This document shows positions 8,075-53,875 of a stretch of 64,000 bases of DNA, one piece after another (within the stretch, counting starts at the first letter, position 1; each line of letters starts with the position of its first letter). The translations under genes and the position numbers were made by a program. Source of the stretch: Schmidtea polychroa (taxonomy: Eukaryota); assembly GCA_044892525.1 (NCBI GenBank), contig CM097886.1:123442001-123506000 (forward strand), read 5' to 3'. The notes below the pieces were generated by a model that was not told the origin of the DNA, did no database searches, and saw only the letters and a list, made by a program, of their open reading frames with translations.

Positions 8075-9409
8075 CTAAATTGATTGCAAAATCGACTGTA
8101 AACTTACAATTAGATTCTCAATTTTCAAAACTCGATCACATCTTCCTATTCTTTTACAAGCATTCCATATGTATATAAATTCTTCGCTACAATTCTCTTT
8201 CATCCTTATGGTCTCCGCAGACAAATAAGTACCGTCGGAAAGGTATATATATGCAATATAGCATTTAAAATCCGTAATAATTTCTCCTATACTTGCTATA
8301 ATCTTTGAAGCGACCCTATTCCATGATATGAGGATAGGCTGTTCATATTTTATCAAGTAAATCGTAAATGTTTCCGTTAAATGACGCGAATTGATATGTA
8401 ATAGTATTAAATCCAAAAATGACATAAGTTTTGTTTTGTCTGCTGTAAATCTTGTCGATAAATGCTTTACACACTCAATAAACCTTTCTAGCAAACCAAT
8501 AATTTCTTCTAATGTTTCATAAAAAATGTACAGGCCGATTTTTTCATCTGTACTTTCCAATAAGTGTGCTTCAATGGCCTCTATAGAGGCTCTTATTTCT
8601 TTATTTGTATAGAAAGAGCTGGAAAAGGAGAGATCCATTTCCTCATGATCAATTGGCGAGTTCGAGAAAAAACCTCTATGTCTATTTATGAAGAAATTGT
8701 TGAAGTAAGTGAAAAGATTTTTCAATAGCCATATGAATAAATTAGTATAACAATCGCATTTTTTATTCAATTTATTTAGAATATCGGATATATTTTTGAA
8801 ATAATCTATAAGTTGTGCTAGATCTATCACTTTCTTTTGATACTGTCTAAAACATTCTCTTGCAAATTCCAAGATCTCATCATTATTTATGTATATGTAA
8901 TATATTTTATTATAATATTTTCTATATTCATAGACTAACAGTCGATGAGTACTCATATCAGGGAGGTCGTAACTACTAAGCACATTCGATAGTCTTTGAA
9001 TATGTTCAACCAACTCCTCTGCAGATTCGAGAAAAACTAAAGGATTTTTGTAACTTTCTTCTATCAGTGCGATGAATTCCGATTCTGACGTTTCTATATT
9101 GATGGAATGGAAATCCGGGAAAGAAATATTATGTTGGAAGTTTTTGGGAAGTTCATGGAGATTTGAATTAATCAGTTGTAGAATCTTCGAAAAACTAATG
9201 AAACTGTCAGTCAACATGGTATCATCACTAGTTCCGTTAGTGACTTTCAGCATTGTAATCGGTATTCTATCAATTGGGCAAGTTTGGTTAGTATTCAGTA
9301 ATTCACTCACACAATTCTTACAAAACGTATGGTTGCAACTTTCAAACATCATAACCATATCGTTACCCGTTTGTGAATAGCATATCAAACATTCGTAATT
9401 GATTTCCAT
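8075..9409 (-). CDS. Intronless RING-HC (C3HC3D-type) putative E3 ubiquitin ligase, 444 aa, with a long helical C-terminal region
   Basis: N-terminal CLIC-x14-CNHTFCKNC-x10-CPID. ATG start and an uninterrupted 1335-bp ORF. Confidence 0.8.
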   Translation of the reverse strand: MEINYECLICYSQTGNDMVMMFESCNHTFCKNCVSELLNTNQTCPIDRIPITMLKVTNGTSDDTMLTDSFISFSKILQLINSNLHELPKNFQHNISFPDFHSINIETSESEFIALIEESYKNPLVFLESAEELVEHIQRLSNVLSSYDLPDMSTHRLLVYEYRKYYNKIYYIYINNDEILEFARECFRQYQKKVIDLAQLIDYFKNISDILNKLNKKCDCYTNLFIWLLKNLFTYFNNFFINRHRGFFSNSPIDHEEMDLSFSSSFYTNKEIRASIEAIEAHLLESTDEKIGLYIFYETLEEIIGLLERFIECVKHLSTRFTADKTKLMSFLDLILLHINSRHLTETFTIYLIKYEQPILISWNRVASKIIASIGEIITDFKCYIAYIYLSDGTYLSAETIRMKENCSEEFIYIWNACKRIGRCDRVLKIENLIVSLQSILQSI

Positions 9410-30035: not shown

Positions 30036-30799
30036 NNNNNNNNNNNNNNNNNNNNNNNNNNNNNNNNNNNNNNNNNNNNNNNNNNNNNNNNNNNNNNNNN
30101 NNNNNNNNNNNNNNNNNNNNNNNNNNNNNNNNNNNNNNNNNNNNNNNNNNNNNNNNNNNNNNNNNNNNNNNNNNNNNNNNNNNNNTAAGCCTATTGCTGC
30201 AAATAATATATTTATTATAAATGAAAAATTTTCGACTATAAGATATCCCTTGTCAATTTTCTTTAAGGACTATCTTATAGTCGAACATTTTTTCATTTGT
30301 ATTAAATATATTATTTGCTGCAAAAGACTTAAATTATCATTTAATTGTTTAAAATTTAATTAATGCTGTTACCNNNNNNNNNNNNNNNNNNNNNNNNNNN
30401 NNNNNNNNNNNNNNNNNNNNNNNNNNNNNNNNNNNNNNNNNNNNNNNNNNNNNNNNNNNNNNNNNNNNNNNNNNNNNNNNNNNNNNNNNNNNNNNNNNNN
30501 NNNNNNNNNNNNNNNNNNNNNNNNNNNNNNNNNNNNNAACATTTTTTAACAATACTCTAAAATATATTTTTCAATTTAATTAAAATATCGGTGAAAACTG
30601 GAAAAATGTCGGTGAAAAATGCAAGAGTATTTGTGAGAAAAAAGTAATCCTTAAATTGAATAGCATATTAATAATAGACAAATTGATACGGGGTTTTTCA
30701 ATCTTTTAATTTTAAAGAAACCGAAAGGGAAATAGAAAAACATAGAAAAATCATATTGAAAATTCTGAAGTTGAATTTGAATAGATAATAATAAAATGT

Positions 30800-33573: not shown

Positions 33574-34349
33574 ATGAAACCTGACCCGATTCATTCGAAA
33601 GACAAACTGAATGAAGGAATCTTAAACGATTCTGAATCGAAATTCCCACAAGACTTTTCACTCGGGGGACACAATTTCCGATCGTATTTGTTCGATGTCT
33701 TTTCTAAAAATTCTGTCCCTTCTGGACTGCCACAGTCAATTATGTTAAGATACCTAACTGCACAATTTCAATCGTTTCAAGCGGCGAAATATTTCTCCAA
33801 CAATCATTTTCTAACCCCATCATCTCTTCTTGGTCATCAAGACACGAATTTTCCTCAAAAACTTTTCGAAAACCATTTGTCTTCATCTATTCAAAAGTCC
33901 CCAGAAGGTAGCTCAACAAGTCAAAGAAATCTCCACCGAAACAACTTTAGTCCACTACAAAATCATATTTTATTAGAATGGTACGATAAACACAAACATA
34001 AGCCTTATCCGTCAACAGAGGAAACAAAACACTTGGCGGCCTTGTGTGGCCTTTCATATCCTCAAGTAAGAATTGAACTGAGAAATTATTACAAAATTAT
34101 TTTCTATTCTATTTCAAGGTAAAAAAATGGTTCGCTAATAAAAGAGCTCGATCATCGTTTTATCAAAAGGATGAAATAATATCCTGCCAAACTCAAGCAA
34201 GGTATAACATGCTGAGGTTCCCTTTGCAAATGTCCAATCGACTCAATTCTGAAGTGGTTAAAAGTCTTGAAGCCCAATTTGCCAACAACATAGATAATCT
34301 TGCCTTGGTTTCGAGTTCCAGTCATGACGATTCTGTTATATCTGCGTAA
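33574..34349 (+). CDS. Divergent TALE-class homeobox gene (intron 34066-34118; an upstream exon is possible)
   Basis: RNNFSPLQNHILLEWYDKHKHKPYPSTEETKHLAALCGLSYPQ|VKKWFANKRAR. It has the PYP loop and a 53-bp GT-AG intron at the classic Q|V position. Exon 2 is open for 77 codons. Confidence 0.9.
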
Positions 34350-35478
34350 TTATCCCATGATACATTCTCAGATTTTTTAAATATCTCCTTTGTAACTTTT
34401 CAATTATATCTAACTTAATATTATTTAATAGATCTATTGTNNNNNNNNNNNNNNNNNNNNNNNNNNNNNNNNNNNNNNNNNNNNNNNNNNNNNNNNNNNN
34501 NNNNNNNNNNNNNNNNNNNNNNNNNNNNNNNNNNNNNNNNNNNNNNNNNNNNNNNNNNNNNNNNNNNNNNNNNNNNNNNNNNNNNNNNNNNNNNNNNNNN
34601 NNNNNNNNNNNNNNNNNNNNNNNNNNNNNNNNNNNNNNNNNNNNNNNNNNNNNNNNNNNNNNNNNNNNNNNNNNNNNNNNNNNNNNNNNNNNNNNNNNNN
34701 NAATATTAATGATGGTAAAATTCTGTCATGGAAAATATATACAATGGACCGTGCAAATCATCATCGTTATCAATATCGTAATAATAATAATAATAATTAT
34801 AATTATTATTATTAATATTACTATAATGATGATTATTATTATTATTCTCAGCATCAACAGAATACACTTATCCAACAGTTGTAACGAAGACAAACGCCAA
34901 TGGGATATAAATATTTGAGAACAATAGTCTCGGAAGAGTGATATAATTACTCCATTTGTATCCAAATACTCTGTTAGTCTAGAGTCGTCAGTAGGGAAAG
35001 TTAAGCTCACAAGGAAGAAGGATGCGTATTGAATAGAGCGCAGAGCTTATGATAATTATTGTAGTTGTTTTAATCATATTGTTGTTTTTTCCTTAACATT
35101 TCTATTATCACTTGTTGAATTGTATTAATTGTTTGAATGGCTTCCTGTGTTTATTGGTGGAGCATGAAAACATACTGGGATATGATGTCAACTCATTTGG
35201 CTGGTGTGTAAAGGTGCATGTGGTTTCCTTGGTGGGAGAATTCTATTGTTTCATTCTCAATTGTATTTAATATTCTAGTTTTCTCTGAATCCTCAGATAG
35301 ATTTATGTAACAATTTGCTGTATTCTTCTACAAAAAATTTATTCTCAAAGAACCAATACTGACAATTTTATATTGAAATTGTTTTCATTCTTTCTAATTA
35401 CTGTAATGAGGAGTCTTAGCAAGGATTACCTACGAATAAGGGATGAAGATCGAAAATACTTATTAGGGGAAATATTAT

Positions 35479-35480
<2 letters not shown>

Positions 35481-35560
<80 letters not shown>
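35481..35560. repeat. (AAT)n microsatellite; another AAT/ATT tract at ~34780-34850
   Basis: Direct inspection. Confidence 0.95.
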
Positions 35561-35562
<2 letters not shown>

Positions 35563-37581
35563 GGATTACTTTCACTAGGACCAAAGTTCAGTATAAACAG
35601 AGAAATAGATGAAGCAGCCATCCTCAATTTCAAAACAGCTCTTTGTCGCATTGCGTACCAGATCAAATGGAACAATACAATACCGCATGAAAATGAAAAT
35701 AGCGAAAACCAGCTCCCAGTATACATAAACACAGATAAACTCTATCAACCAAATCCTGATGCAGAATTAGATTCAACACTCTCAAAGGTCTGTCACAAAA
35801 TCATGGAGTTAGTTGAGAAGGAAAGAAGAAAACCATATCTCTCAAACCTTACAAAAGACGAACAGGCAATATTAAAATCCCTTAAAAAGAAACCGTACGT
35901 TTACTTACCAAGTGACAAGGGGGGAGAATTTTGCATTATAGAGAAGAATCGTTACTGTGAAGCTGGTTACGAACACCTCGGCAACATCGAAACATACAAG
36001 AAAGTCAGCCGCATGTCACCAAACACCATCGAAATGAAGATCAACAAAGTATGGAAAGCCATAGCTTTGGAAATGAGGCTCAACAACAGAATAACCAACA
36101 GCTTCGTCACAAAAAATTCTGATCTTCCTAACTTCTACCACCTAATTAAAACTCACAAAGAGGGTCCTGGTATCAAAATTAGACCTATAGTGTCCAACAA
36201 AAATGGACCAACAACTAAAACAAGTTGGCTCCTTGCAAAGATCTTGAAACCTTTATTGGACACGATACCACACCATCTTCAAAGCAGCGACTGCCTCATG
36301 ACAAGACTAAATAATAACATGACTTGCCATAGAGAATTCCAATACCCATTTAGTCTTGATGTCGTATCACTATACACATCTATCGAACCAACAGAGGCTA
36401 TTCAATGTTTAGAAAAGAAATTAAGAGAAAGCAACTTGTTAATAAAGGAAATGAATACCGAGAATATCACCAAACTACTTACTGTTATCCTCGAGAACAC
36501 CTATTTTACCTTTGAACAAAATATCTATAAACAAGTTAAAGGTCTGCCTATGGGTTCTAGCATATCAGGACTGCTAGCAATCATCTTTATGGATAACCTC
36601 GAACGACAGACACTGAGGACCATACAACCCATCGGTTTCTATGCAAGATATGTAGATGATATCTTCATCTTGACCAAAAACAGAAAAGAAGCGGAGGAAA
36701 TATTTCATTCATTCAATGCGGCTCATCAAGATATTAAGTTCGAAATCGAATATCCGGAAGAAGATGGATCCCTCAATTTATTGGATTTGAGAATCAAAAT
36801 AGAAGAAAATACTCCAACATACGGGTTCTACAGAAAACCAGCTCGCAAAGAAATATTTATGCACCAAAGATCAGCGCTTCCATACTTACAGAAAGTACAT
36901 GTCATAAGAAACGAGAAACGAAGAATAGCCAATCGATGCACGGAGAAAAACGAAAACTTTAAAGAGCAATCAAATTTCAATAAAATCCTACACCGAAACG
37001 GATACCAAGGTGAGGACATTGAAAAAATGAATTCTACCCCAAGAAGATCTAGGGAATTAACACAAAAGAATCAGAAATATTTCTATCTGAATATCCCATT
37101 CATCAGTGACATACTCGACTTCAAGATCCTGAAAGAACTTAAACGTACCGGTCTTCCAATTCGGATATCACATAAATCTTGGACATTGAGAAGGGCTCTG
37201 GCAGGCAACATAAATAGAGAAAACAATTGCACAATGAAAAACTGCCAGACACCGAAAGATATGTGCTTTAGAAAAAACATCGTCTATTGCATCACGTGCA
37301 ATGTATGCAATGAAATCTACATTGGAAGTACCCTCAGGACATTGCACCAAAGAGTTAAAGAACATCTAGATCCTGGTGGAACATCCTCGTTGGGCAGACA
37401 TCTCCGGCAGTGTCAGCCAACAGAGGAAAGAAAAAATATTTCAATAGAAATCATAGCTAATGGAAACATCCAAAAGAAAAATGTCAGAATCAAAGAAGCA
37501 ATTCTCATAATAAACAGACAGCCAAAGATCAACACTAAAGAAGAAATCAATGAAATCATGAATTTGATCTGTTGTCATTGA
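35563..37581 (+). mobile_element. Penelope-like retroelement: RT + GIY-YIG endonuclease, uninterrupted ORF, 5' truncated
   Basis: In-frame LLSLGPKF from 35563, PSDKGG, FYHLIKTHK, SLDVVSLYTSI, GLPMGS, RYVDDIF, LNLLDL, and a Cys-rich linker before IVYCITCNVCNEIYIGST..HQRVKEH. Confidence 0.95.
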
Positions 37582-38299
37582 CTTTGAGAATAACTGACAA
37601 TATACAAAGAAATTAAAAAAATAAGAATAAATTAAAAAGTAATAATTAGAATAATATAGAAAAAAATTTTAAAAAATAGGGTTTGAAAATCAAAATTGAC
37701 ACATTTATTGAAATATTTAAATAGCATATATAAGTAGTTATTGGAGGCTTTATTTAAAATATTTTCAAATATTTTATTAGGCTTCTAGAAGCTAATTATA
37801 GAAGCTGTAAAAAAATTTAAAAATTTTAGTTTGTGTCATTTTGAAATTTTAAATGTAAAAATTATAAAAAAATTTTAAAAGTTTTTAGTAAAACAATTCA
37901 TTATATTTACAACCAATGAGAATTAAGAGAAAGGAAATAAAAGAAAGATTGAAGGGTATTTTGAAGAAGAACATTGCTAAATTCCAGGAGATTGACAAGG
38001 ACTATCGTATAGTCGAAAATTCTTTCATTAAATACATTATTTGCAGCAAAAGGCTTANNNNNNNNNNNNNNNNNNNNNNNNNNNNNNNNNNNNNNNNNNN
38101 NNNNNNNNNNNNNNNNNNNNNNNNNNNNNNNNNNNNNNNNNNNNNNNNNNNNNNNNNNNNNNNNNNNNNNNNNNNNNNNNNNNNNNNNNNNNNNNNNNNN
38201 NNNNNNNNNNNNNNNNNNNNAAAGAATCGGAACGCACGAAACGCATTGTTTGAAAATCTCATTGTAGTTTCTTGATTTACATTATATCTTTTTGACAAC

Positions 38300-40962: not shown

Positions 40963-42822
40963 ATATTCAATTTATTAACTTTTATTAATTAATTAATTTT
41001 TTTTGTTAACATATTATAATGATGAAATTTTGATTATCTCACATTTTTTATACATCCTAACTACCACTAAGCTTTTTGTCAGGACTAAACGCTTTTAATG
41101 GGAATAAATTGGGTTGATATGCTATATACCAAAACAAAAGACTAATAGTACTGGTATGTACCAACATATCCATCGAATTCTCGATGTCTTTTCATCATTT
41201 TCAAATATAAAAAATATTTTTGAGTAATAAAAACATAAAAAGTTCGAAAATGTATTCTCATTTCCCTTAAAAAAATACGCCAGAAAAGGATTCAATCAGG
41301 TATGAAGTAAAATACAAAATAAATAAAAATTTCTTGAAAAAAAAGGATACTATTTTTACACAAAAAGAAGAAAAAGAAAAAAAGAGAAGTGGAAGAAAAG
41401 AAAAGAGTAAAAAGATAAATGGAAAGTGAAAAAATATAAAAATATCAAGATTAAGGCACGAAATGAAAAACTGCGCAAATGGAAAACTGCACATGATACT
41501 TGACTGGGACACATATGTCCCGATATACTCCTAAGGTTAATTCAAATACATAGAAAAGATTTTTGAAAAATAAGTAGGTCAACTGACAAATTTTGAAAAT
41601 ATTTAGAAAAAATATTGAAAATTATGTGGGTCAAATCGACTTTAAAAGTAAAGATCAGTAACTCAAAGTTGATTATTGAGAGTTTCTGACAGTGTAATTT
41701 GACTATCAATGGCTAATTTCAAAGGATTTTCCTCAGAGTTTCCGAATGCCTATTATGGTGATCCAAGGTAATAAAGGGTATTACAAGGGTCATTTTGAAT
41801 GTTTATATGAATGGTCAAAACCAATAAATATTGATATATGCACGCGCAAGTACACTCTTAATAAAAAGATATATTTTAAATTATTCATGTCTTTGTTAAT
41901 CATGCAACTGTATTTATTCTGATTCGATTGGCTAAACGTGTTATAAATAGACATTTAAAATAATCATTTCTAAATCCTATTATAAAAATGTGACAAAACG
42001 AACTGTTTAACCATAATCAGAAAAATCATATCATCAATAGCCTCCAATACTTGGTGAAGCGCACAGAGAATATAATAACTCCTGTAATATCAATTAATTC
42101 TAAATCTAGAAAGATATGAGCAAATAAACTCGAATAGTCGTTGGTTTTGTCTACATGAAAAATATTATTCTTAAATCCAGCTCCGACTATGAAAATTATT
42201 TCCAATTGTCTGTAGAAGCATAATATTTTATTTTTTAATTGTTATTATTAATATTATTAAAGATTTATTGACTACTACATATACAATCGTAATTCCCACA
42301 ATTTTCTCTCATAATATTTTCTACAATACATTAGTAATAATAAATACTGATTATCAGCACCGCCTCTAGTGATACTAGCACCCCGATGCAAGTTTCTTTT
42401 TAGCGCCCTTTATAAAAAATATATCAAAAAACTCAAAATTAAACATTTTTTTTCAATTGTAATTAACAGATATCAATTATACATAAAATCAATTGCACGA
42501 TAGTTAATTCAAAATTTTATTTTTCTTGCTTTTATCGAAGCAAATTCATCCAAAATATCATTAATTTTGATTTCATCGCAGATATCGCTTTTAATAGTAA
42601 TCATTTCCAACCCAACTAATCTCTCTTGAGAAATACTTAATCGCAAATATCTTAATCAGTTTATGTCTAGAAAATGATTTTTGGTCACTAGCTACAGAAA
42701 CTGGTAGAGTTAATAGTATCCGCAAAGATAGTGAAGAAAAAAGACAAATAAAAGCGTGATCATGCACAGAATTGATAGTAAAGGAAAGTACGATGGAAGC
42801 AGTATTAGGAAATTGCAAAAGC

Positions 42823-43781
42823 AGTTACGAAAGGAAATCCGAGAAAAATCAATAAATTGTAAAATCATCGAAATCGAATTGGGAAAACCGGACAGGTATA
42901 GATTAGCAAATGGTCAACAAAATGATGATTAGGGATTTATCAGAAAATGGTTAGGTAGGCTCGAAAAGCATTCAAATGTGTAAAAACAGAAAACATTAAT
43001 TAATTAATTAATTGGCTAATAGAAAACCCGAGCTAGTGGGAAACCTGAGCCAATAGAGAACCCTAGATATAAAGGAAACCCGAGCTGGGTAAACAAGAAG
43101 AAAAGTAAACAGAAGGAAGATTTGGGCCCATTAGCTTGACACAATGATTAATTGGAAAAGAACAAGGAGAAGAAAGTACGTGTAGAAAGGCCGGACGGGC
43201 CATTAATTATCTTTGTTCGTTGGACCATTATTGGTGACAGCCGAAGCAGATACGATGAAGCAAATTTCAAGTGAGAGATTGGCTCGGCAATAACCATTTG
43301 TCATCCAGATTTCGAAGAGTATATAAGGAAGGGGAAAATTAGACCAAATCGGCATTTTGTCTCAGCTAGGGTTAGAAGAAATCGAGCTTAGGAGAAGGTA
43401 AAAACGAATTTAGGAGATTAGGGAAAAAGAAGAGATAGAATAAAAATAAAAAGAGTGAAAAAGGATCAAATCAAAGAGAAAAAGGAAAACGTTGGTCAAG
43501 AGAACCTAAGGAAATAAAAGGTGAATATTATCTTTATCAAAGCATCAATACCGAGCGGAGAATCGGTCAAACTCGAACTGTTGGACTATTTATTATTGAT
43601 TGTGTATTATTGAGAGAAAATATATTTTGATTTCAATATACGTTGGGTCGTTTATTGTTTTGATTTAAACTTTAAAAAATTCCTTTAAATCTTCTAATAA
43701 TAACCTTTAATAGTATCCTTTAAATTTTAAAGGACACGAGGAGTCAGAGGTAACCAACTTAAATTAACTGAAAACCCAACA
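42823..43781 (+). repeat. 5' LTR (left boundary approximate)
   Basis: Ends ...aacccaaCA 7 nt before the PBS. TATA-like gtatataag at ~43318 and AATAAA at ~43439 and ~43512. The start (a)GTTACG resembles TGTTACG. Confidence 0.6.
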
Positions 43782-43805: not shown

Positions 43806-44022
43806 CCAAAGTCGGCGGAGAATTATTGAAAGTTATTGGAAAAATATTTGGAAAAACAATACAGAAGTAATTGAAGGTCGGCTGAGAATTATTGAAAATT
43901 ACTGGAAAATTTGTTGGAAAATAGTGCTGACGAGATAGATATTAAAGGTTATTATTAGAAGATTTAAAGGAATTTGTAAAGTAAATTTAAATTATTGTTT
44001 AACGTTTGAAGTTTAGCTCAAA

Positions 44023-45544
44023 GTGAATCAATACAACCTCAGAAGTCAAAAACAAGTCCAAATGGCAAATGATGATGCTGTTATGCCTCTCAATCGAGAG
44101 ATGATTGATTTCGCAAGATGCCGGAAATTACCCGTCAATCAATATGGAGGAGACCCTGTTGAATTCGCAGATTTCATTGGAGATTATTATATGTATGCCT
44201 CAGCATACGGATGGACACAAGCCATTATGGTTCAGAGATTCCCACTCTATTTGAAGGGTGCAGCAAGGGAAACCTGGCAACAAGTAGATAAACGAAACGT
44301 TGGTAATGATTGGTCCAAATTGAAGGATGCAATGGCACTGAAACTGGTTGGTGGAGATATCAAAAGAATCATGAGACAGAAATTCTATAATCGAGTTGAA
44401 GGTTCAGATGAATCGGTCAGTGAGTTTGCTTATCATCTGACCACTTTAGCAGATAAAGCCTTTGAAGTCAAACCAGATCAAGTAGATATGGCCAAGCAGA
44501 TTAAAGAGTTGTTGGAATATCAGTTTATAACCGAAGTCCACTCCGAAATCAAAAAGGCCCTATGTTATGTTGATTTTTCTAATTTCGATGAGCTCGTGAA
44601 GAAAGCCATGAAGATCGAGCTGAATTTGAAAAGTGCAAAAAGATCAGATACTTTTGGAGTAAATGTGGAGAGACATGAGGGGTCAATTACTCCTGTGAAA
44701 GCATCATGGGATGAAAAGAAAATAAACCAAATCAGTAGTCCGATTTTGAGACCAAATAATAGATTTCAAGCCAGTAGATCAGCCATGAACGTGCAATCAA
44801 ATGGACAGGTAAAAACCCTCAGTGCGAACATTGCCAAAAGTCCGGACACTACTCAAATCAATGTTGGTTCGAATTGGGAAAAATCCTAGCCCTAAAAAGA
44901 GATTCACAGATAACAAAAGGATCAACAGTGATGTCGAATGCTATCGATGTGGAAAGAAAGGGCATATTAGCAGAAACTGTTTCACTAGATCAAGGTCATC
45001 GTCAACGTCACCTTCACCACAAAGGGACAAAGTGAATACCAATGGACAAATACAATGCCATACGTGCAAGGGATACGGTCATATGGCGCGACCATGCCCA
45101 AGGAACTCAGAAAGATTTAGCATACCTATATTAAAGAAATCGATTAGGTTCCATGAAGATATGCCAAATACCAGTAATATGACATAGGCGCAGAGAGAGG
45201 AATTTCAAGACAAAATGGAAAAGAAATTTCGAGAAATGCGACAGAAGTTGAACAAATTAGTGGCTAAATTCGAATCAAACGAGGAAACTGAATCTCATAT
45301 GATAATTGGAACCGTGTCAGAAGGTGAGGAAAAACCCACCACGAAAGTGAGAAAAATCGTATCAGATGAGAATCCGACGGCATTGTTAGCCCGAGTTGAA
45401 AGATGGCTTGCAAGAATGGAAACTGACAACTCCCAGTTGAAACGATGGATCGCAGAACTCAGTTTGATGTCACTAACCCAGAGTGAATTAAAAAGAGCAA
45501 TAAATTTATGTGTAAAGCTAATTCAAAGTACACAGAGACGATGA
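44023..45544 (+). pseudogene. gag: Gag with two CCHC zinc knuckles and a coiled-coil extension (frameshift near 44880, stop at ~45185)
   Basis: YNLRS N-terminal motif, capsid-like YGGDPVEF..F..Y...A..YGW..FPLYLKGAARETW, and knuckles CYRCGKKGHISRNC and CHTCKGYGHMARPC. Confidence 0.9.
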
Positions 45545-45605
45545 GATACTTAAACAAATGCAGAAGTTTGGCAAGGCTTTACGGTCAACAAAGGATTTAG
45601 CTGAT

Positions 45606-45815
45606 ATCATAGTGGAAACGACTGGACTTGATAATGTGAAGTGCCAATTCCGTGTAAATGCATACGGACAAATCAGAGAGCTAAAGGAGCGAATACTGCG
45701 TCAATACAGTGGATGACAAGTGCAATTAAAATTTGAGAATCGATTTCTGGAAGACGAAGAGTACTTAGTAGATTGCGGTCTGATACCAGGCTGGAAAAAT
45801 AAAGTAAATGTCGTT
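45606..45815 (+). pseudogene. Ubiquitin-like domain 1 (not in the ORF track; internal TGA at 45714)
   Basis: IIVETTGLDNVKCQFRVNAYGQIRELKERILRQYSG*QVQLKFENRFLEDEEYLVDCGLIPGWKNKVNVV aligns with ubiquitin IFVKT..TI..VKAKI..LIFAGKQLED..TLSDY.I. Confidence 0.7.
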
Positions 45816-45851
45816 AATGCAGTCACTACTTTTAATTCAGGTAGACAGAAT

Positions 45852-46098
45852 TGGGAAAAGATTCTAGCAGATTTACAAGACACTGTATGCAGGGAATAAA
45901 GATAAAATTAATGCGAGTATCGACTTCATAATGAGCAATGAAATGGATCGAGAAATGAAAGAAGGGTTGTTTGAATGCATCGTACCGTATACGAATAAAC
46001 CGACAAGTTATCAAGCAAAGTTAAAAGAAGTAATCCGAAAACTAGGACATGATTATGGGTGGCAGACAATAGTGCGAAGTCTTTGTTACAAGCGTTGA
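45852..46098 (+). pseudogene. Possible CARD/death-fold helical domain
   Basis: WEKILADLQDTV/GNKDKINASIDFIMSNEMDREMKEGLFECIVPYTNKPTSYQAKLKEVIRKLGHDYGWQTIVRSL, assembled across one frameshift. The pattern resembles CARD D-x-L-L-S-x-E-L...R-x-L-x-D-L-x-x-[RK]G. Confidence 0.35.
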
Positions 46099-46290
46099 AT
46101 ATTGCGGATCAAAGGATTGAATATTATCAGGAACATTGGAGTGTAAAAGCAAAGAAAATACGACAAAAAGCAGCGGAGATATTAGGTAATGAAGGAATTA
46201 TCGTGTTGACGTTCAAAGGACGAGAATTAGATGATGACGAATATTTATTGAATTACGGATGTAACCCAAATTGCATTAATAATGTATACG
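46095..46290 (+). pseudogene. Ubiquitin-like domain 2
   Basis: AKKIRQKAAEILGNEGIIVLTFKGRELDDDEYLLNYGCNPNCINNV is paralogous to UBL1 (LxFxxRxL[ED]D[ED]EYLx[DN]xGxxPxxxNxV). Confidence 0.7.
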
Positions 46291-46635
46291 CAGCAAAGCA
46301 AAGTGATAATGCCGTTTTGCCCTCCGTATGAGGAAACGGACAATGATAACGTAGAGACAATGGAGATTAAAACTGAAGTTGTAGATGACCCATGATAAAT
46401 TGATCAGGAAATTAATGAATGGCAGAGTTTGGAAACACTGAAAAATAATGAAATGGGATCGGAAAATGTAGCTAAAAGGGATATCGAGGAAATGAGCACC
46501 GATAACAGGGTATTACCAAGTATAAATAAAACGAAAAGTGAAGAGAACTTCGTTGAAACGGAAAATGACATTGCGATATGTCGGAAACGACAAAATGATG
46601 CGGAAACTGAATCTTTGAGTTTAGATGAATCAAGC

Positions 46636-47016
46636 GAAACTGAGCGAGTATTAAAAAGTTTAATTGCGGAATTGTACTTGTTCGATGAAACTGAAACAAA
46701 AAGAGATGATACTTCGGAGGAGGAGGAAAGAGTTGTAAAGAAATTAGCAACGGAATTACAAAGGAGATTACCGTCGATAATTAAAACAAATAATGAAGAA
46801 AAGGAATTTTGTGAGGAAGCAGTAATTGAGGAGCTAACACGAACCGCGTTGGATCGAGATGTAATATTGACAGTGCTAGCCTATATAATATTGGAGATCG
46901 GTATTTATGGTTGTTTAGAAGCTGACAATTCAAAATCGTTAATAAAGAAAGCCACTGAAATGACGAATAAATATTTGATGAAGTGGATTGCAAACAATGG
47001 CGGATGGGAAAATTTG
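46636..47016 (+). CDS. Bcl-2-family domain within ORF 46429-47226
   Basis: BH3-like VKKLATELQRR, BH1-like EAVIEELTRTALDRDVILTVLAY (NWGR lost) and a strong BH2, KYLMKWIANNGGWENL. Confidence 0.8.
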
Positions 47017-47067
47017 ATACAAAAGACGGAGAGCCCAAAAACAGAGACAGTAAGGGAAAAGGGAAAA

Positions 47068-49083
47068 CTCGCATTTCCATGGTTGATGATCTCTATTATT
47101 ATGTTATTGGGAATAATAAACACGACGAATTCATTGGTGGCATACGGCTGCTCCCAAACCGAAATGGGAAGAGTATATTCGTTGGTAAACGTAGCAGTGT
47201 TCAGATGCATACCCAGTAAAGTTTAAAGTGACAAATCCAGTAAAATATCATGTATATCAAGAATCTGGGTTTCGACGAGCAAAGGTGAGAGAGTATACAG
47301 TCAAACGAACTACTTTTGTATTTTATTGTGGAAAATGGAGCCACTCATTGATGGTGAAAATGCAATCGATACCTAGACCGATTGAGATAATTCCAGAAAA
47401 TTGCCTGGCAGCCTTTCGAACGGGACAGCTGAAAATCAATGCCGATATTAAATTGTAAGCAAAGCTAAACCACAAAATCCGTGAGACTGTAACCGTGAAA
47501 GGGATAATAAAGTCGAATGGTGATTGCCAAGGAGAACCATACAAAATAGCGATGCGATAATTGACCAAGCCGTTGTTGTGGAAGAGTACATGTCGGAACT
47601 AAGTTAGTTTGATGGATCATTCGATGATGATACGTGTAAACTACAGACACATCCATTCTGCAACATGAAACAATCTAGGTGACAGACAGTAGAATCAATC
47701 TTGGTGTACCATGTCGATACAATACGGTTCAATTTAGTGCAATTAAAGTCAATGTGTTTTAAAGAAATAACGGGAGAGCAGATCAGGGAAAAGCCTGAGA
47801 AGATAAGAATGGATCCAGCAACGAATACAACAACAAGAATCACACCTCTACGGATGAAAGATACTTCAACAGTATTAATGTCAACCTCAACAGAAGATGG
47901 GATGAGATTCCTGAGAAAAGAAACTAAAACAAAGTGTGGACAAAGTGTCTATGAGACAAATTATATGTATCTCAGAAGGTGATTACAGAGTCTCAAACAA
48001 ATATAGATGCCGGAGATATTAAGTTGACAAATTACTTTAATAACAAAATAGATTATTTGTTTCATTTTGGTCAAAATACCGTTGAAAATGTGTACCGAGA
48101 AGTTATTATAAATGATTGCAATCTCAAAAAAGAAATACTCCGAAATCGGATGCCAATGGCTAAAACCAATCCTAATTTGATAGCACCATTGTCAATTACA
48201 GAAAATGGGGTGTTTGCCAGAATTTTCGGTGAAGCACTATATAGCTATAAATGTAAAGCGGTACCAGTTAAACTAACAAAGTACGACCAATGCACCAACA
48301 AGTTACCAGTAAATTTAAATGGAAAGTTGCGATTTATGGAGCCTATGACACGAATCTTACTGGAAGAGGACGTGAAACCGAAAGTATTACAGTGCAATAG
48401 ATTGTTGGCACCACTATACAGACTAACACCAGAATCTTGGATTGCATTGCCAGATCATCGAGAAGTGAAGACACCGGAAAATTTAGAATTGACAGAATTA
48501 CAATATCTGGTGAATTTTACGTCGTTAGAAAAATTGTCGCAAAGTGGAATTTACTCGAGCGAAGACATTGAGGAAGCTCGCAGAAAATTGTTATTTCCGT
48601 CGAAGAAGGAAAGAGTAATAATGGAAATGGTAGATACAATTCTCCCAAGCGGAAGTGGGTAGGTAAATTACGAGTATTTGTTAACTCCAGATCATTTCAA
48701 GAAAGCGATGTAATACACAATGAAAAAGATCTGGTGAAAATTTATGTTCATTGGACAAACCGTGCGCCGGATTGATTGGAATTTATGTAATATGTGTTGT
48801 AATCAAAGTAATAATATCGCAGGTCCTTTCAACACACAGGTTATACGCGATCTCAGGTTGGTCGTGGAAACTAGTAATTGTTTGCATACCATTATTGGCC
48901 AGATTCTTCATTGCTCATCATCAATATCAGGAGTTGGAGATACTCAAGGCGCGAATATTAAAGAAGAAAAAGGTGAGCTTCGCTAGTATAACCCCTTCAA
49001 GGGACGAGAATAATGACAATGACAACGAGGGTGATAGTGCACCGTTATATGTAGATAATCAAGAACTAAAGTGGAGTAAATAA
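47068..49083 (+). pseudogene. env: Class III fusion (chuvirus/herpes gB-like) envelope glycoprotein, fragmented
   Basis: Hydrophobic leader then AYGC..YSLVNV..C, YCGKWSHS, GDCQG, CGQSVYET, DC.LKKEIL, GEALYSYKCKAVPV..CTNKLPV, P.TRIL, C....P.Y, SGIYSSEDIEE.R..LLFP, and a TM followed by LY.ISGWSWKL. Confidence 0.8.
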
Positions 49084-49339
49084 AGAAGCGTTAAGAACCT
49101 ATCAAATCTTAAAATAGCCACTGTTGAATGCGAGTAGCGTAGACACGTTTACAAAATTGTGTATACCAAAATCATTTATGCAATCAGCACCAGTTTATCC
49201 AGTTGATCGATTACGAGAAATGAAATCAGTCGAAAATATCGCATTACAATGTGAAAGAATGGCAGGAGAGAGAGTCGAGTCTTCTAGTGCGGAGATCGAG
49301 AGAAAGAATATGTTAGGCTTACCATGCAATTACTCATTG

Positions 49340-49642
49340 ATGACATTAACAAAAAGAGGAAAACAACCCCGAATATTTATACAAATGAACAAACATAAAG
49401 TGGAAGCTTTGGTTGATTCGGGATTTAGTCACACAATAATATCGGAAAATGTATTAAACGCGAAGGAAAGAATGCGAATAAAGCCTACCGACGAAATAGT
49501 TAGATCATTATCAAAAAACGAATTAAACATAATTGGACAACTTAACGTCGTATTCCATATTGGAGATCGAATAATAGCTCACGATGCGCTCATAATGAAG
49601 GGACGTCCAGCACAATGTCTGATCGGCATGGATATATTATAG
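49340..49642 (+). pseudogene. Retropepsin aspartic protease
   Basis: VEALVDSGFSHTIIS...CLIGMDIL. Confidence 0.9.
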
Positions 49643-50149
49643 CAGCTGGACGGAATCTCACTTGATTTAAAGACAGGTAATTTGATAGCAGGAGAAACAG
49701 GAGAAATAATTCACAGGACAGGTGAAGTGTTTTTGAATCAGACATTAACAATACCACCACAATCGGAGATGGTCTACTGTGCAAATACCATGAGTGTGGA
49801 TAATGGCGATTTTATATTTGAACCAAATCAAACGCTAATCGAAAAATATGATCTACCGATATGTGACGAAATTATCAAAGTGGAAAATCAGTACCAGTCC
49901 ATATACTAATAGCAGTAAGAAACCGGTTCAGCTACACCCAAAAACAAAATTGGGAAAGTTATCAAAAATGTCTATTGAAACAAATTGCAAAATTCCAAGA
50001 AACGTCAAGGTGTATAAAGAGCCTGAAGTGGTAAGCAATGATTTAAATGAGATACAGAAAAAGGAATTCACAAAACTATTGAGAAAATACCGAGACATCT
50101 TTGCCAAACATGAATATGATTTGGGTTTAACCAATGTAATTGAGCATGA

Positions 50150-51400
50150 AATACCGTTATAAGACGAAACTCCAATTAAAATAAAGCCATACAGAATCCC
50201 TCCCCTACGTTCATCAAGATGAAAGTGATAGACAGATTACAGCAATGAAGGAATTTGGAATAATTCGAGATAGTGCGTCACCATTCTTCTCATCAATAGT
50301 GATAGTTAAGAAAAAAGATGGAGACTTACGATTTTTCGTAGAATATCGGAAGCTAAATCAAGTTACGAGGAAAGATACTTATCCTATTCCGGTACCTCAA
50401 GAAATGTTCGATCAAATGGGAGAGGCACGATATTTCACAGTTATTGATTTAAACAAAGGGTACAATCAATTTAGAGTAAAAGAGGAAGATAGAGGAAAGA
50501 CGGCGTTCTCTGATGGCAAAGGATTATATGAATTCAACGTGTTACTATTTGGATTAACAGGAGCCCCAGCTACATTCCAACGAGGAATGAATTATGTGTT
50601 ACGAGGTATTCGACATGCATTGGTGTATATCGACGATATAATAATATTTTCAAATGATTTTGAAGAACACCTCAAAGATGTAGAAACCGTATTTAAACGG
50701 CTCAAAAATGCAAAATTAAAAATCAAACCATCGAAATGTGAATGGGGCAAAGCAGAAGTAGTTTATGTCGGACATATAATATCACGGCGAGGGTTACAAA
50801 CTAATCCAGATAACATCAAAAAAGTGGAAGAGTACCCAGTATCGAAAGATGCCGATGAGGTCAGACAATTTTTAGGTTTGGCTAGCTATTACAGAAAATT
50901 TATAAAAGATTTCTCTCATATCACTCAACCATTGAATACGTTACTAAAGAAAAACAATAAATTTATTTGAGGATAAATGCAACAAAGCGCTTTCAATACA
51001 TTAAAAGAGAAATTAGTGACAACTCCCATATTACGATATCCAGATTTTACGAAACAATTTATCTTGATGACGAATGCAAGCAATGTTGCATTGGACGCGG
51101 TGTTGGGCCAAAAATTTGAAGGTGAAAAGGACAACATAATAGCATACGCAAGCACATCACTGAGATCTCATGAGAAAAACTACTCAACTATTGAAAAGGA
51201 AATGTTAGCGTTAGTGTATGGAATTACTACTTTTAGACAATATTTATTGGGCAGAAAATTTACACAGAGATTCAACCAGTAAGTTAATTCGATGGTCGAT
51301 TGCCCTCCAAGAATACGATTTTGAGATTAAATATCGGACAGGTAAAGCTAACGCAAATGCAGATGCAATGTCAAGAATCACAGAAAATGATAGGGAAGGA
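50150..51400 (+). pseudogene. pol: Reverse transcriptase + RNase H (disrupted)
   Basis: PIKIKPYRIP, SPFFSSIVIVKKKDG.LRF.VEYRKLN, DLNKGYNQ, FGLTGAPATFQR, YIDD, FLGLASYYRKFI, then TNASN..L.AVL.Q, YSTIEKEMLA and IKYRTGKANANADAMSR. Confidence 0.95.
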
Positions 51401-51441
51401 ACACCTGAAAAATTGGAAGGTACTATATTCGCTGCAATGAT

Positions 51442-52650
51442 ATGTCTGAACTACAAAATGATCAGGAAAACGATAGTGAATTAAAACAATTTATGGAACA
51501 AGCGGTTAAGATAAGAAAAGAACAAGATTGGAAACGACTCACAGATGCAAACAGCAGATATGTAATTCATAATGGAATACTTAAGTGTTGGATAAATGGC
51601 GAAGCGTTAATTATTATCCCAGCCAAGTACAGAGACGCATTACTGATGCAGTATCATGACGGAGCCTTGGGAGGTCATTTGTCAACGCGCAAGACGCTAT
51701 CAAGATTAAAACTGAAATACTTTTGGCCAACAATGGAACAAGACGTGAAAAATTGGTGTAGCAGTTGTAAAGTATGCATCACTCGCAGAAATACTGGTAA
51801 AAAGATCAAAGTACCATTAAAACCGATGCCAGTACCTGCAGCACCGATGGAGATGACGGCAATGGATATTCTGGAACCATTACCGGAAACAACAAAAGGA
51901 AACAAATACATTGTTGTTTTTTGCGACTATTTTACTAAATGGCCGGAAGCATACGCTATTCCAAACCAAAAAGCAGACACGATTGCTAGAATATTTGTGG
52001 AAAACATAATATTTCGCTATGGTACTCCAAAGAAATTGCTAACTGATCAAGAGAAGAACTTTCAAAGCGAAATGTTTAAATCAATCACAGACCTATTTGG
52101 GATTTGGAAATTGAATACTTCATCATATCATCCACAAACTGATGGATTAGTGGAACGATTTAATGGGACACTGATAAATATGATCTCATCATATGTGAAT
52201 CGAAAACAGAAAGATTGGGACGACTTCATTAAGCCGTGTCTATTTGCCTACAGAAATGCAGTAAATCAAAGTACAGGTGAAACCCCTTTTTATTTGATGT
52301 ATTTAAAGAAAAATAATATGCTGATTGATCTCAAATTCCGATCACCAATTTCACAATATATGGAGATACCCGAATATAAGGCATTGATGCAAGAAAGAAT
52401 GCAATCAGTATGGACTAAAGCCGGTTTGACAATAAAGCACAACCAAGAGAAATATAAAGAAGCCTACGATAAAAAAGTACATGCGCATGGCATAAAGATC
52501 GGAGATCTAGTATATCTTAACAGACCGGAACCTCTCAAAAAGCTATCACCGAAATTACAAAGACCATTTAAAGGACCATACAAAGTGTGCGACACCACCG
52601 AAACCAATTTAAATTGTTTCCATTCAGAAGTAAAAAGGCTAACCCAATGA
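51442..52650 (+). CDS. Integrase (HHCC, DDE, GPY/F)
   Basis: YHDGALGGH...WCSSCKVC, TAMDIL, LTDQ, TDGLVERFN, FKGPYKV. Confidence 0.95.
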   Translation: MSELQNDQENDSELKQFMEQAVKIRKEQDWKRLTDANSRYVIHNGILKCWINGEALIIIPAKYRDALLMQYHDGALGGHLSTRKTLSRLKLKYFWPTMEQDVKNWCSSCKVCITRRNTGKKIKVPLKPMPVPAAPMEMTAMDILEPLPETTKGNKYIVVFCDYFTKWPEAYAIPNQKADTIARIFVENIIFRYGTPKKLLTDQEKNFQSEMFKSITDLFGIWKLNTSSYHPQTDGLVERFNGTLINMISSYVNRKQKDWDDFIKPCLFAYRNAVNQSTGETPFYLMYLKKNNMLIDLKFRSPISQYMEIPEYKALMQERMQSVWTKAGLTIKHNQEKYKEAYDKKVHAHGIKIGDLVYLNRPEPLKKLSPKLQRPFKGPYKVCDTTETNLNCFHSEVKRLTQ

Positions 52651-52806
52651 TTGTCCAAAATTGAAACAGAAATTCCCAAAAAATCCAACACCAGTCAGCT
52701 ACATCAATAAAGTATTATATGTGACAACAATGCTGATGTAAGTAACAGTTGCGAGCGGCAAAAGGATTGATTTGCCATATGCGGTAAACAAAATCCAGGG
52801 AATGGA

Positions 52807-52859
<53 letters not shown>

Positions 52860-52860
<1 letters not shown>

Positions 52861-53875
52861 CACTCTAACAAATATTGTATGGAGTTGTGTATGCAAGATT
52901 ACAGACCAAATAGGAATTATTAATTTATTGGACAATACGGCACCAGTTGTAGAACTGAATTATGATAGAGATGTATTAGCGGCACGAAGTTTAAAGCCAA
53001 ATTTCAAATACCAATGGCTGTTGAGACAGAACATGTCAAAGTGGTACACGCAAATTTCGATAGAAGTGCAGACAAAAGAGATACGAAACTTGATCGAAAT
53101 AGAACCAGTAATAAATGGAATCAATATATATTGGAAGCCAGTGGACTTGGTGAAAGTGCGAATCACATTTCAAGGATTAAATGTCGACACCCTGAACTCA
53201 CGAAAATCATTTGTCCGTTATGAGAAATTGGAAATGAATCAGAATTATACAATCAGTGCAAACTACTACGAGAACATATGCCTCGACAATGGAACGGTAG
53301 TGAGAAACCAATGGTCACGGTTTAAGAGTGAGACCCAGTCCATCTATCTCAGAAACGAGACAAATCGTATAACCTTGAGTGTTGGAAATGGATCGGTAAC
53401 AATATATCGAAAATCAGGAAATGATGAAAGAGTTGTTATTAACTACAAACAGAGAACCCTGACTATATTAGATGCCGGTATTCATTTTTTTACAATTTAC
53501 ACTTCTGATTTAGAGATGGTATGGGAAATAACAGTTAAATATCAGCGTTGGATGACCGAACCAGGCAGATGGCAAACAATTTTCGTGGAAGTCAAAGCGA
53601 TCAACGAACCGAAACAAACGTTGTATACGACGACATCACCTTTCCAATTACCAACCCAAAGAACGACAAAACCTTTTATTAACACAAATAAACTAATGAT
53701 GACGGATTTGGATTTGACAGTCAACCATTGTGATTATCTCATTTACATTCTAATAACAGGTTTTCTCATTTTGTCAATAACATTCATAACTATCACCATC
53801 TTGATATGTGTAAAAAAGAGACAACTGACTATCCTTCAACCACCATCATATTCATATTATGAAACAAAACTATAA
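52860..53875 (+). CDS. Type I membrane protein with FN3-like ectodomain, Thr-rich stalk, TM and short tail (N-terminus obscured by a (TA)n tract)
   Basis: EIRNL.EIEP.INGINIYWKP...YEKLEMNQNYTISA (FN3-like), sequons NMS/NYT/NGT/NET/NGS, TM YLIYILITGFLILSITFITITILICV followed by KKR, and tail LQPPSYSYYETKL-stop. Confidence 0.65.

Follow-up and report, generated by a model that had tools for sequence, protein, structure and literature searches.

The anchored capsid protein of flaviviruses carries at its end the signal peptide for the glycoprotein that follows, which keeps it anchored after cleavage. At the HCV core-E1 junction, as far as it is treated in PMC5402940, the upstream cytosolic protein likewise ends in the signal of the next glycoprotein and is anchored after cleavage, with the anchor being later removed by signal-peptide peptidase. 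Among retroelements, the giant gypsy elements Burro and GYPSM1 of planarians encode one polyprotein consisting of Gag, a Ubi/SUMO-like region, a BCL2-like region, an in-frame env, protease and pol; in Burro the insert has been described as Ubi2/SUMO-like, env is placed in frame between BCL2 and the protease, and the BCL2-like motif is credited to Grohme et al. 2018, while signal peptides, topology and an FN3-like protein are absent from the Burro section of that work (Arkhipova and Yushenova 2019, PMC6431247). The same Gag-Env-Pol order and a gB-type Env have been reported for Smed_errantivirus_2, listed with 215 copies, and some gB-type ectodomains are said there to have a signal peptide or two membrane helices at their flanks (Chary and Hayashi 2026, PMC13524379, main text and supplements); a word search of that main text, figures apart, returned no Bcl-2, ubiquitin or apoptosis, and seven of its supplements contain no Bcl-2, signal peptide or fibronectin entry.

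The window considered here is a stretch of 64,000 nucleotides from Schmidtea polychroa (assembly GCA_044892525.1, contig CM097886.1, positions 123,442,001 to 123,506,000), from the first letter of which all positions below are counted. The first-pass annotation had seen in it a retroelement Bcl-2 homologue whose tail anchor appeared to double as the signal peptide of Env. A Ty3/gypsy element of Gag-Env-Pol layout, present in many copies, was found to be represented in the window by a dead copy. In elements of this kind, with a probability of about 0.62, a Bcl-2-fold domain is followed by what is likely the internal signal of Env, the cut at which would leave Gag-Ubl-Bcl-2 tethered at the cytosolic face of the ER. 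This is no discovery of a new kind of element, since publications already describe both the in-frame env and the Bcl-2-like cargo; the modest additions are the reality of the Bcl-2 fold, a suggested single capture among the tested sequences, and selection in several lineages, together with a predicted topology with two signal peptides and an FN3-like second membrane protein that were not found in print. The literature searched, which did not extend to Lee et al. 2026, Grohme et al. 2018 or the figures, contained neither the signal-anchor reading nor the FN3-like protein.

Layout and decay of the window copy

All parts of the element lie on the forward strand. A 5' LTR-like stretch (42724..43669) matches the terminal repeat of another genomic copy at 82-86%; the terminal repeats are identical in one sister copy, and no 3' partner was detected at 53.8-58 kb of the window. 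Further on are a broken gag with CCHC zinc knuckles (44017..45187; PF03732 E 2.5e-8, PF00098 E 4.5e-10) and two ubiquitin-like (Ubl) domains, also broken, placed by tblastn within the approximate limits 45603..46307. PF00240 was matched at E 5e-4 in L031, a sister copy with an open frame, and at E 0.11 in the window, and the internal repeat of the Ubl region, seen in L031 and L111, is common to four other families. The frame 46399-47226 opens with an acidic linker between Ubl and the Bcl-2-like domain (46399..46638), a candidate place for a protease cut, which has the weakest constraint among the regions tested (shared-variant dN/dS 0.38 and 0.26). It continues with the diverged Bcl-2-family domain (46639..47016), recognised by sequence, profile and fold and under purifying selection, a basic, n-region-like linker (47017..47067), and a hydrophobic helix with a polar c-region (47068..47133), predicted to be the internal signal peptide of Env. 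The predicted signal-peptidase cut, marked by small -3/-1 residues, falls between 47133 and 47134. On inspection, the motifs stand in the order read earlier, namely DRDV (46852-46863), WIANNGGW (46984-47007), LAFPW...INTTNS (47068-47133) and LVAYGC (47134-47151), and the Bcl-2-like region indeed shares its open frame with the last two.

The chuvirus-like or gB-type envelope glycoprotein (47134..48990) was confirmed by PF24664 on three pieces (E 7.6e-7; 1e-43 at 47955-48659; 2e-7), which bears out the glycoprotein start claimed at first pass, but the residues after YSLVNVA are off-frame in the window copy, the first of its frameshifts and stops being at about 47195. Downstream are the broken protease, reverse transcriptase, RNase H region and integrase (49118..52650, by Pfam), and a second signal-like helix with an FN3-like ectodomain (about 52859-53620) and a C-terminal membrane helix (about 53735-53810), together occupying 52700..53875. 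Some 20 codons beyond the predicted cut, near 47195, the copy departs from the frame of its family, and it meets a stop at 47226, so that it cannot make the Bcl-2-Env fusion itself. Its alignment to an open sister copy is broken into 16 pieces, between which the frame shifts and 10 of which contain stops, and there is also a stop within the second signal-like helix. The copy L004 exits the frame at the same point past the junction and with a similar short tail, by either shared descent or a fragile site; L013 breaks differently.

Relatives and conservation of the junction

The genome (781 Mb) contains at least 150 copies of this family, family A, at 85-92% protein identity, and several of them are one 3334-aa frame. 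In these open sister copies the Bcl-2 domain is located about 890 residues into a single Gag-first frame and not at its start, env lies in frame between gag and pol with the Ubl and BCL2-like domains ahead of it, and the order gag, env, PR, RT, RNase H, integrase was confirmed by Pfam in the window pieces and in an open sister copy. Families B-F of the same genome and five metagenome proteins have the same domain order at about 19-38% identity. Family F, with about 4811 aa, ankyrins and a RING-TRAF-MATH gene downstream, fits Burro1, whereas family A is compact (3334 aa) and lacks ankyrins. Judged by sequence, the window element matches Smed_errantivirus_2 and is a Burro relative, the Env given in row 206 of supplement 3 of PMC13524379 being near-identical by eye to that of family A. 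Accessory frames were noted after the polyprotein at L139:6926-8362, L141:2655-4985 and L143:4180-5847, and a 550-780 aa accessory frame with no Pfam match is common to families B and D. A search for viral contigs with Env gave seven pattern matches, none of them confirmed.

The fusion itself proved to be conserved in the sister copies. The stretch from BH2 to Y[DG]C is stop-free in all 30 loci chosen on the Bcl-2 part, among them the window copy, and in 29 of 30 loci chosen on env, the two sets partly overlapping, and the frame is open from BH1 into Env proper in 24/30 and 28/30, respectively. The junction is kept in all 11 distant lineages (the six genome families A-F and the five metagenome proteins); thus, the fusion is old and no accident of the window copy. 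That Env is also or mainly expressed from a separate RNA, spliced or started internally, by way of a Met where the helix begins, appears improbable. A Met does stand 19-22 residues ahead of the cut in 6 of the 11 lineages, as for a relic Env start, a point weakened by the Met-richness of these helices; however, family A has no such Met, the nearest being at -16, and the downstream Pol, which is in the same frame, requires read-through of the junction. Contigs of five sequencing runs cover the family sequence, and one of them bridges the junction; since it is a guess that these runs are RNA, the lack of any joint into env among the contigs weighs little against this reading, and the contigs do not count as evidence of expression.

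The Bcl-2-like domain

The segment 46639-47016 is a real, diverged Bcl-2-family domain, as the first-pass annotation had held. Taken alone, it was matched by PF00452 at E 0.0019 over 46636-47016, with 19.1 bits being below the cut-off of 31.4, and by human Bcl-2 chains at E 0.08-0.6. Six of seven aligned relatives match PF00452 (best E 2.5e-6); a 7-sequence profile found Bcl-2-family chains of the PDB at E 2.5e-5 and a 14-sequence profile found Bcl-xL at E 5e-6, all 60 of the 60 matches listed for each profile belonging to the Bcl-2 family. These profile matches span BH1 to BH2 only, and of the BH3/BH1/BH2 region originally read, BH1 and BH2 were matched but the BH3 motif is unrecognisable. 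In the BH1 region (46834-46869) DRDV does replace NWGR, which is absent from all 12 aligned element rows (DRDV, NRDK, DKEV, NGDR, ENR, DDEH, TDSK and DKSR types). The BH2 motif is present, with GW invariant and the first Trp replaced in family F only.

The AlphaFold model is poor (pLDDT 52, and under 50 for the junction helix, residues 151-168). All 45 rows listed by Foldseek were of the Bcl-2 family, but the best E was 0.08 and none reached E <= 0.001. Among 48,161 chains compared with VIA-align, the top 10 were all Bcl-2 family (Z 7.2-8.3, rmsd 3.0-4.1, 106-124 residues aligned within model range 1-141, so over the entire domain), a Z of 7-8 being modest for a helical bundle and such as can alone arise by chance. 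The fold evidence counts because VIA-align and Foldseek agree with the sequence searches; the structure check thus favours a Bcl-2 bundle from a weak model, and a helical bundle around a central hydrophobic helix is supported at moderate strength by model and fold searches. Foldseek against BFVD gave nothing at E <= 0.001, with two viral Bcl-2 proteins as the best rows, and a word-seeded search of longer proteins for the window domain yielded none among 1784 candidates. A bacterial DotU identity was considered from ESM Atlas and rejected, the best score of 0.89 being below the 0.9 level of a lead and the HMM and fold searches agreeing on Bcl-2. The domain shares with the PF00452 family and viral Bcl-2 homologues the helical bundle, the BH2 pattern W-x-x-x-x-GGW and the hydrophobic central helix; it differs from the PF00452 family in scoring below the Pfam cut-off, in the replaced NWGR, in having no clear BH3, and in its position inside a polyprotein with no free C-terminal tail.

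Selection and origin of the domain

The Bcl-2 domain is kept by purifying selection in several lineages. With dN/dS counted from variants common to two or more copies, its value was 0.16 in 29 family A copies chosen on the Bcl-2 part (a near-twin dropped; biased low) and 0.35 in 27 family A copies chosen on env (three near-twins dropped), where 9 synonymous and 11 non-synonymous shared variants (p 0.02) indicate moderate constraint. It was 0.05 in 19 family B copies, and two pairwise comparisons within family F gave 0.03-0.04, like family F Env. Such low ratios imply that active lineages have benefited from the domain.

When 8 host and up to 3 Maverick-like Bcl-2 rows of the same genome were included in the trees, a single branch separated the element domains from the others (support 99/99), and this branch was retained at 94/96 when the tree was confined to the BH1-BH2 core and five rows were omitted; this suggests one capture among the tested sequences, in trees of long branches whose taxa all come from the element and same-genome set. 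The comparison with host Bcl-2 paralogues that had been proposed at first pass therefore groups the element domains, but supports no donor. The element profile scores the host gene L049 and the Maverick-like L060 highest, and both were dropped as donors because the grouping has a support of only 74/75 in the first tree and 56/78 in the tree of the core. The NWGR glycine is missing from host genes L046, L049 and L051 as well, and no Ubl exons were found near four host Bcl-2 genes in nine 10-kb tiles. At least seven near-identical host Bcl-2 genes with a canonical NWGR form the tandem cluster L038-L044 (G000:C4 89.9-90.8 Mb). Stand-alone Bcl-2-like genes were also observed in multiple copies (L053-L067, L076, L077, L079); they have a tail and a stop of their own, and some seem to carry one intron. 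They adjoin A32-type ATPase, integrase and endonuclease VII-like frames as Maverick/Polinton cargo, resemble host L049, and score high against the retroelement profile.

The junction helix: signal peptide or tail anchor

The helix has the anatomy of a signal peptide in the 11 lineages compared, with net positive charge ahead of it in 11/11, a 12-residue hydrophobic core and a polar stretch. Small -3/-1 residues occur at one register, the site named at first pass, in 9 of the 11, against a background of 0.105 per position; the P value is overstated, since the lineages are related rather than independent and small residues are common after hydrophobic helices. A second possible cut three residues further fits 6/11 lineages. 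At the shared register the rule fails in family B, P0004 and P0009, the last being likely cut two residues earlier. Such features agree with an Env signal as the first-pass annotation understood it; its derivation from a Bcl-2 tail anchor fares worse, because the helix aligns with the start of the env profile. The PF24664 matches begin inside the helix at profile positions about 4-6 (residue 912 of L068 at position 4, residue 916 of L111 at position 5). In P0009, a free-standing env relative whose residue 6 falls at profile position 8, a Met and an ordinary N-terminal signal peptide stand where the helix is. Taken with the variable spacing from BH2, the possible relic Met and the second signal-like helix after the integrase, these alignments make a signal peptide belonging to Env the likelier identity of the helix, ahead of a Bcl-2 tail put to new use. 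The earlier idea of the topology is thus probably right in effect, while the origin of the helix as then stated is wrong or unproven.

The reverse descent, in which the tail anchor of a captured host Bcl-2 became the Env signal and the protease with signal peptidase frees an anti-apoptotic Bcl-2, one per Env, is rather unlikely, though several observations speak for it. Besides the Bcl-2 fold and its selection, the BH2-to-helix spacing of family A, about 20 residues, equals that of the stand-alone Bcl-2 tails of the same genome, which leaves room for descent from a tail anchor. Moreover, protection of planarian stem cells has been reported for the IAP cargo of Burro1 (Lee et al. 2026, as cited in PMC13465017), so that anti-death cargo can be useful to such elements. 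It is opposed by the alignment of the helix with the env profile start and with the signal peptide of P0009, by a BH2-to-cut distance that varies from 42 to 70 residues across the 11 lineages, by a polar c-region with a peptidase-type site in place of a basic tail flank, by the loss of NWGR in 12/12 rows, and by the lack of a known upstream release site. An uncleaved signal-anchor, by which Env would stay fused to Gag-Ubl-Bcl-2 with two membrane passes, is improbable too. The flanking of some gB-type ectodomains by two transmembrane domains (PMC13524379, as described in its text) and the hydrophobicity of the helix in families A-E (KD19 about 2.0-2.4) are consistent with it; however, KD19 is only 1.0-1.5 in F, P0004, P0005 and P0008, and the conserved small -3/-1 residues, short h-regions and polar or charged c-regions argue for cleavage. 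No furin-type R-x-K/R-R site was found in four Env ectodomains.

Proposed topology and function

With the helix taken as the internal signal of Env, Gag-Ubl-Bcl-2 would be synthesised in the cytosol, the helix with its basic linker would insert N-in, signal peptidase would cut after TNS, and Env would enter the lumen and fold there. The Env membrane helix (residues 1600-1618 of the 3334-aa frame) would then return protease-RT-integrase to the cytosol, and the second internal signal (residues 2958-2976) would send the FN3-like part to the lumen. By analogy with HCV core-E1, the anchor may be later removed by signal-peptide peptidase; that junction belongs to an unrelated RNA virus and its cleavage has been shown, whereas here cleavage is predicted, and only the element has a Bcl-2 fold between capsid and signal (PMC5402940, junction as treated there). 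Because Gag and the Ubl domains lie upstream, cleavage would anchor Gag-Ubl-Bcl-2 and release no free Bcl-2, for which an extra upstream cut by the element protease would be needed. The membrane-anchored Bcl-2 protein envisaged at first pass is therefore plausible in topology, but the cleaved product would be Gag-Ubl-Bcl-2; the stoichiometric coupling to Env stands as 1:1 synthesis from one frame, but Gag and Pol are coupled just as tightly. The anchor would be a by-product of env placed inside the frame and would hold Gag to the membrane no less than Bcl-2.

Among viral Bcl-2 homologues, several are able to bind BH3 peptides, or work, without NWGR. The G145A substitution in Bcl-2 is described as abolishing Bax binding and as being dominant negative (PMC5841437, in the portion dealing with this mutant). 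Since all lineages in which a BH1 could be seen have lost NWGR, classical anti-apoptotic binding by the element domain is doubtful. The favoured role for the domain, with somewhat less than an even chance, is that it modulates ER stress or host cell death in a non-classical way at the Env-making membrane; a classical BH3-binding inhibitor is less likely, and a structural, matrix-like role equally so. The strict version of the latter, a spacer that keeps Gag at the Env membrane with no part in cell death, is unlikely. It would suit the place of the domain between Gag-Ubl and the membrane helix in 11/11 lineages, the predicted tethering of Gag by the junction helix, and the loss of the groove signature, the BH2 Trp of family F being changed and yet the dN/dS there being 0.03-0.04. 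However, Gag-Env-Pol elements of nematodes and bryozoans have been reported with no mention of Bcl-2 in the main text (PMC13524379), and the Bcl-2 domain is accompanied by Ubl, TRAF/MATH and IAP cargo that suggests host signalling (PMC6431247).

The second signal-like helix and the FN3-like ectodomain

A second signal-like helix follows the integrase in all five families examined, with no Bcl-2 ahead of it, which points to internal signals as a general device of the polyprotein. It is followed by an ectodomain in 5/5 families and by a final membrane helix in the four where the frame extends so far; the loci in question are 52700-53875 of the window and L032, L139, L141, L142 and L143. The model of the family A ectodomain matched FN3 tandems by Foldseek (E 2.3e-5; 10 matches at E <= 0.001), ESM Atlas gave 0.88 to FN3 proteins, which is a lead only, and Pfam detected fn3 in one of six sequences, at E 0.066. 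The FN3-like part contains four N-glycosylation sequons. According to the model, the FN3-like ectodomain with its membrane helix is possibly a second surface protein. It can be speculated, as a possible but doubtful extension, that these elements are enveloped retroviruses of flavivirus style, whose four-pass polyprotein with two internal signals would yield tethered Gag-Ubl-Bcl-2, a Pol-tethering class III fusogen and an FN3-like surface protein, the NWGR-less Bcl-2 fold being selected for a new job at the ER, either as a death brake in the Env-producing stem cell or as a link of Gag to the membrane.

Other features of the window

A 179-nt inverted repeat (30036-30214 and 38029-38207) is likely an artefact, as both arms are mostly runs of N. 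The reverse strand encodes a 444-aa frame with an N-terminal RING finger (8075-9409), and the forward strand encodes a frame with a TALE/KN-type homeodomain (33574-34122) and a 704-aa Penelope-like frame with reverse transcriptase and GIY-YIG domains (35467-37581), open save for its leading AAT repeat.
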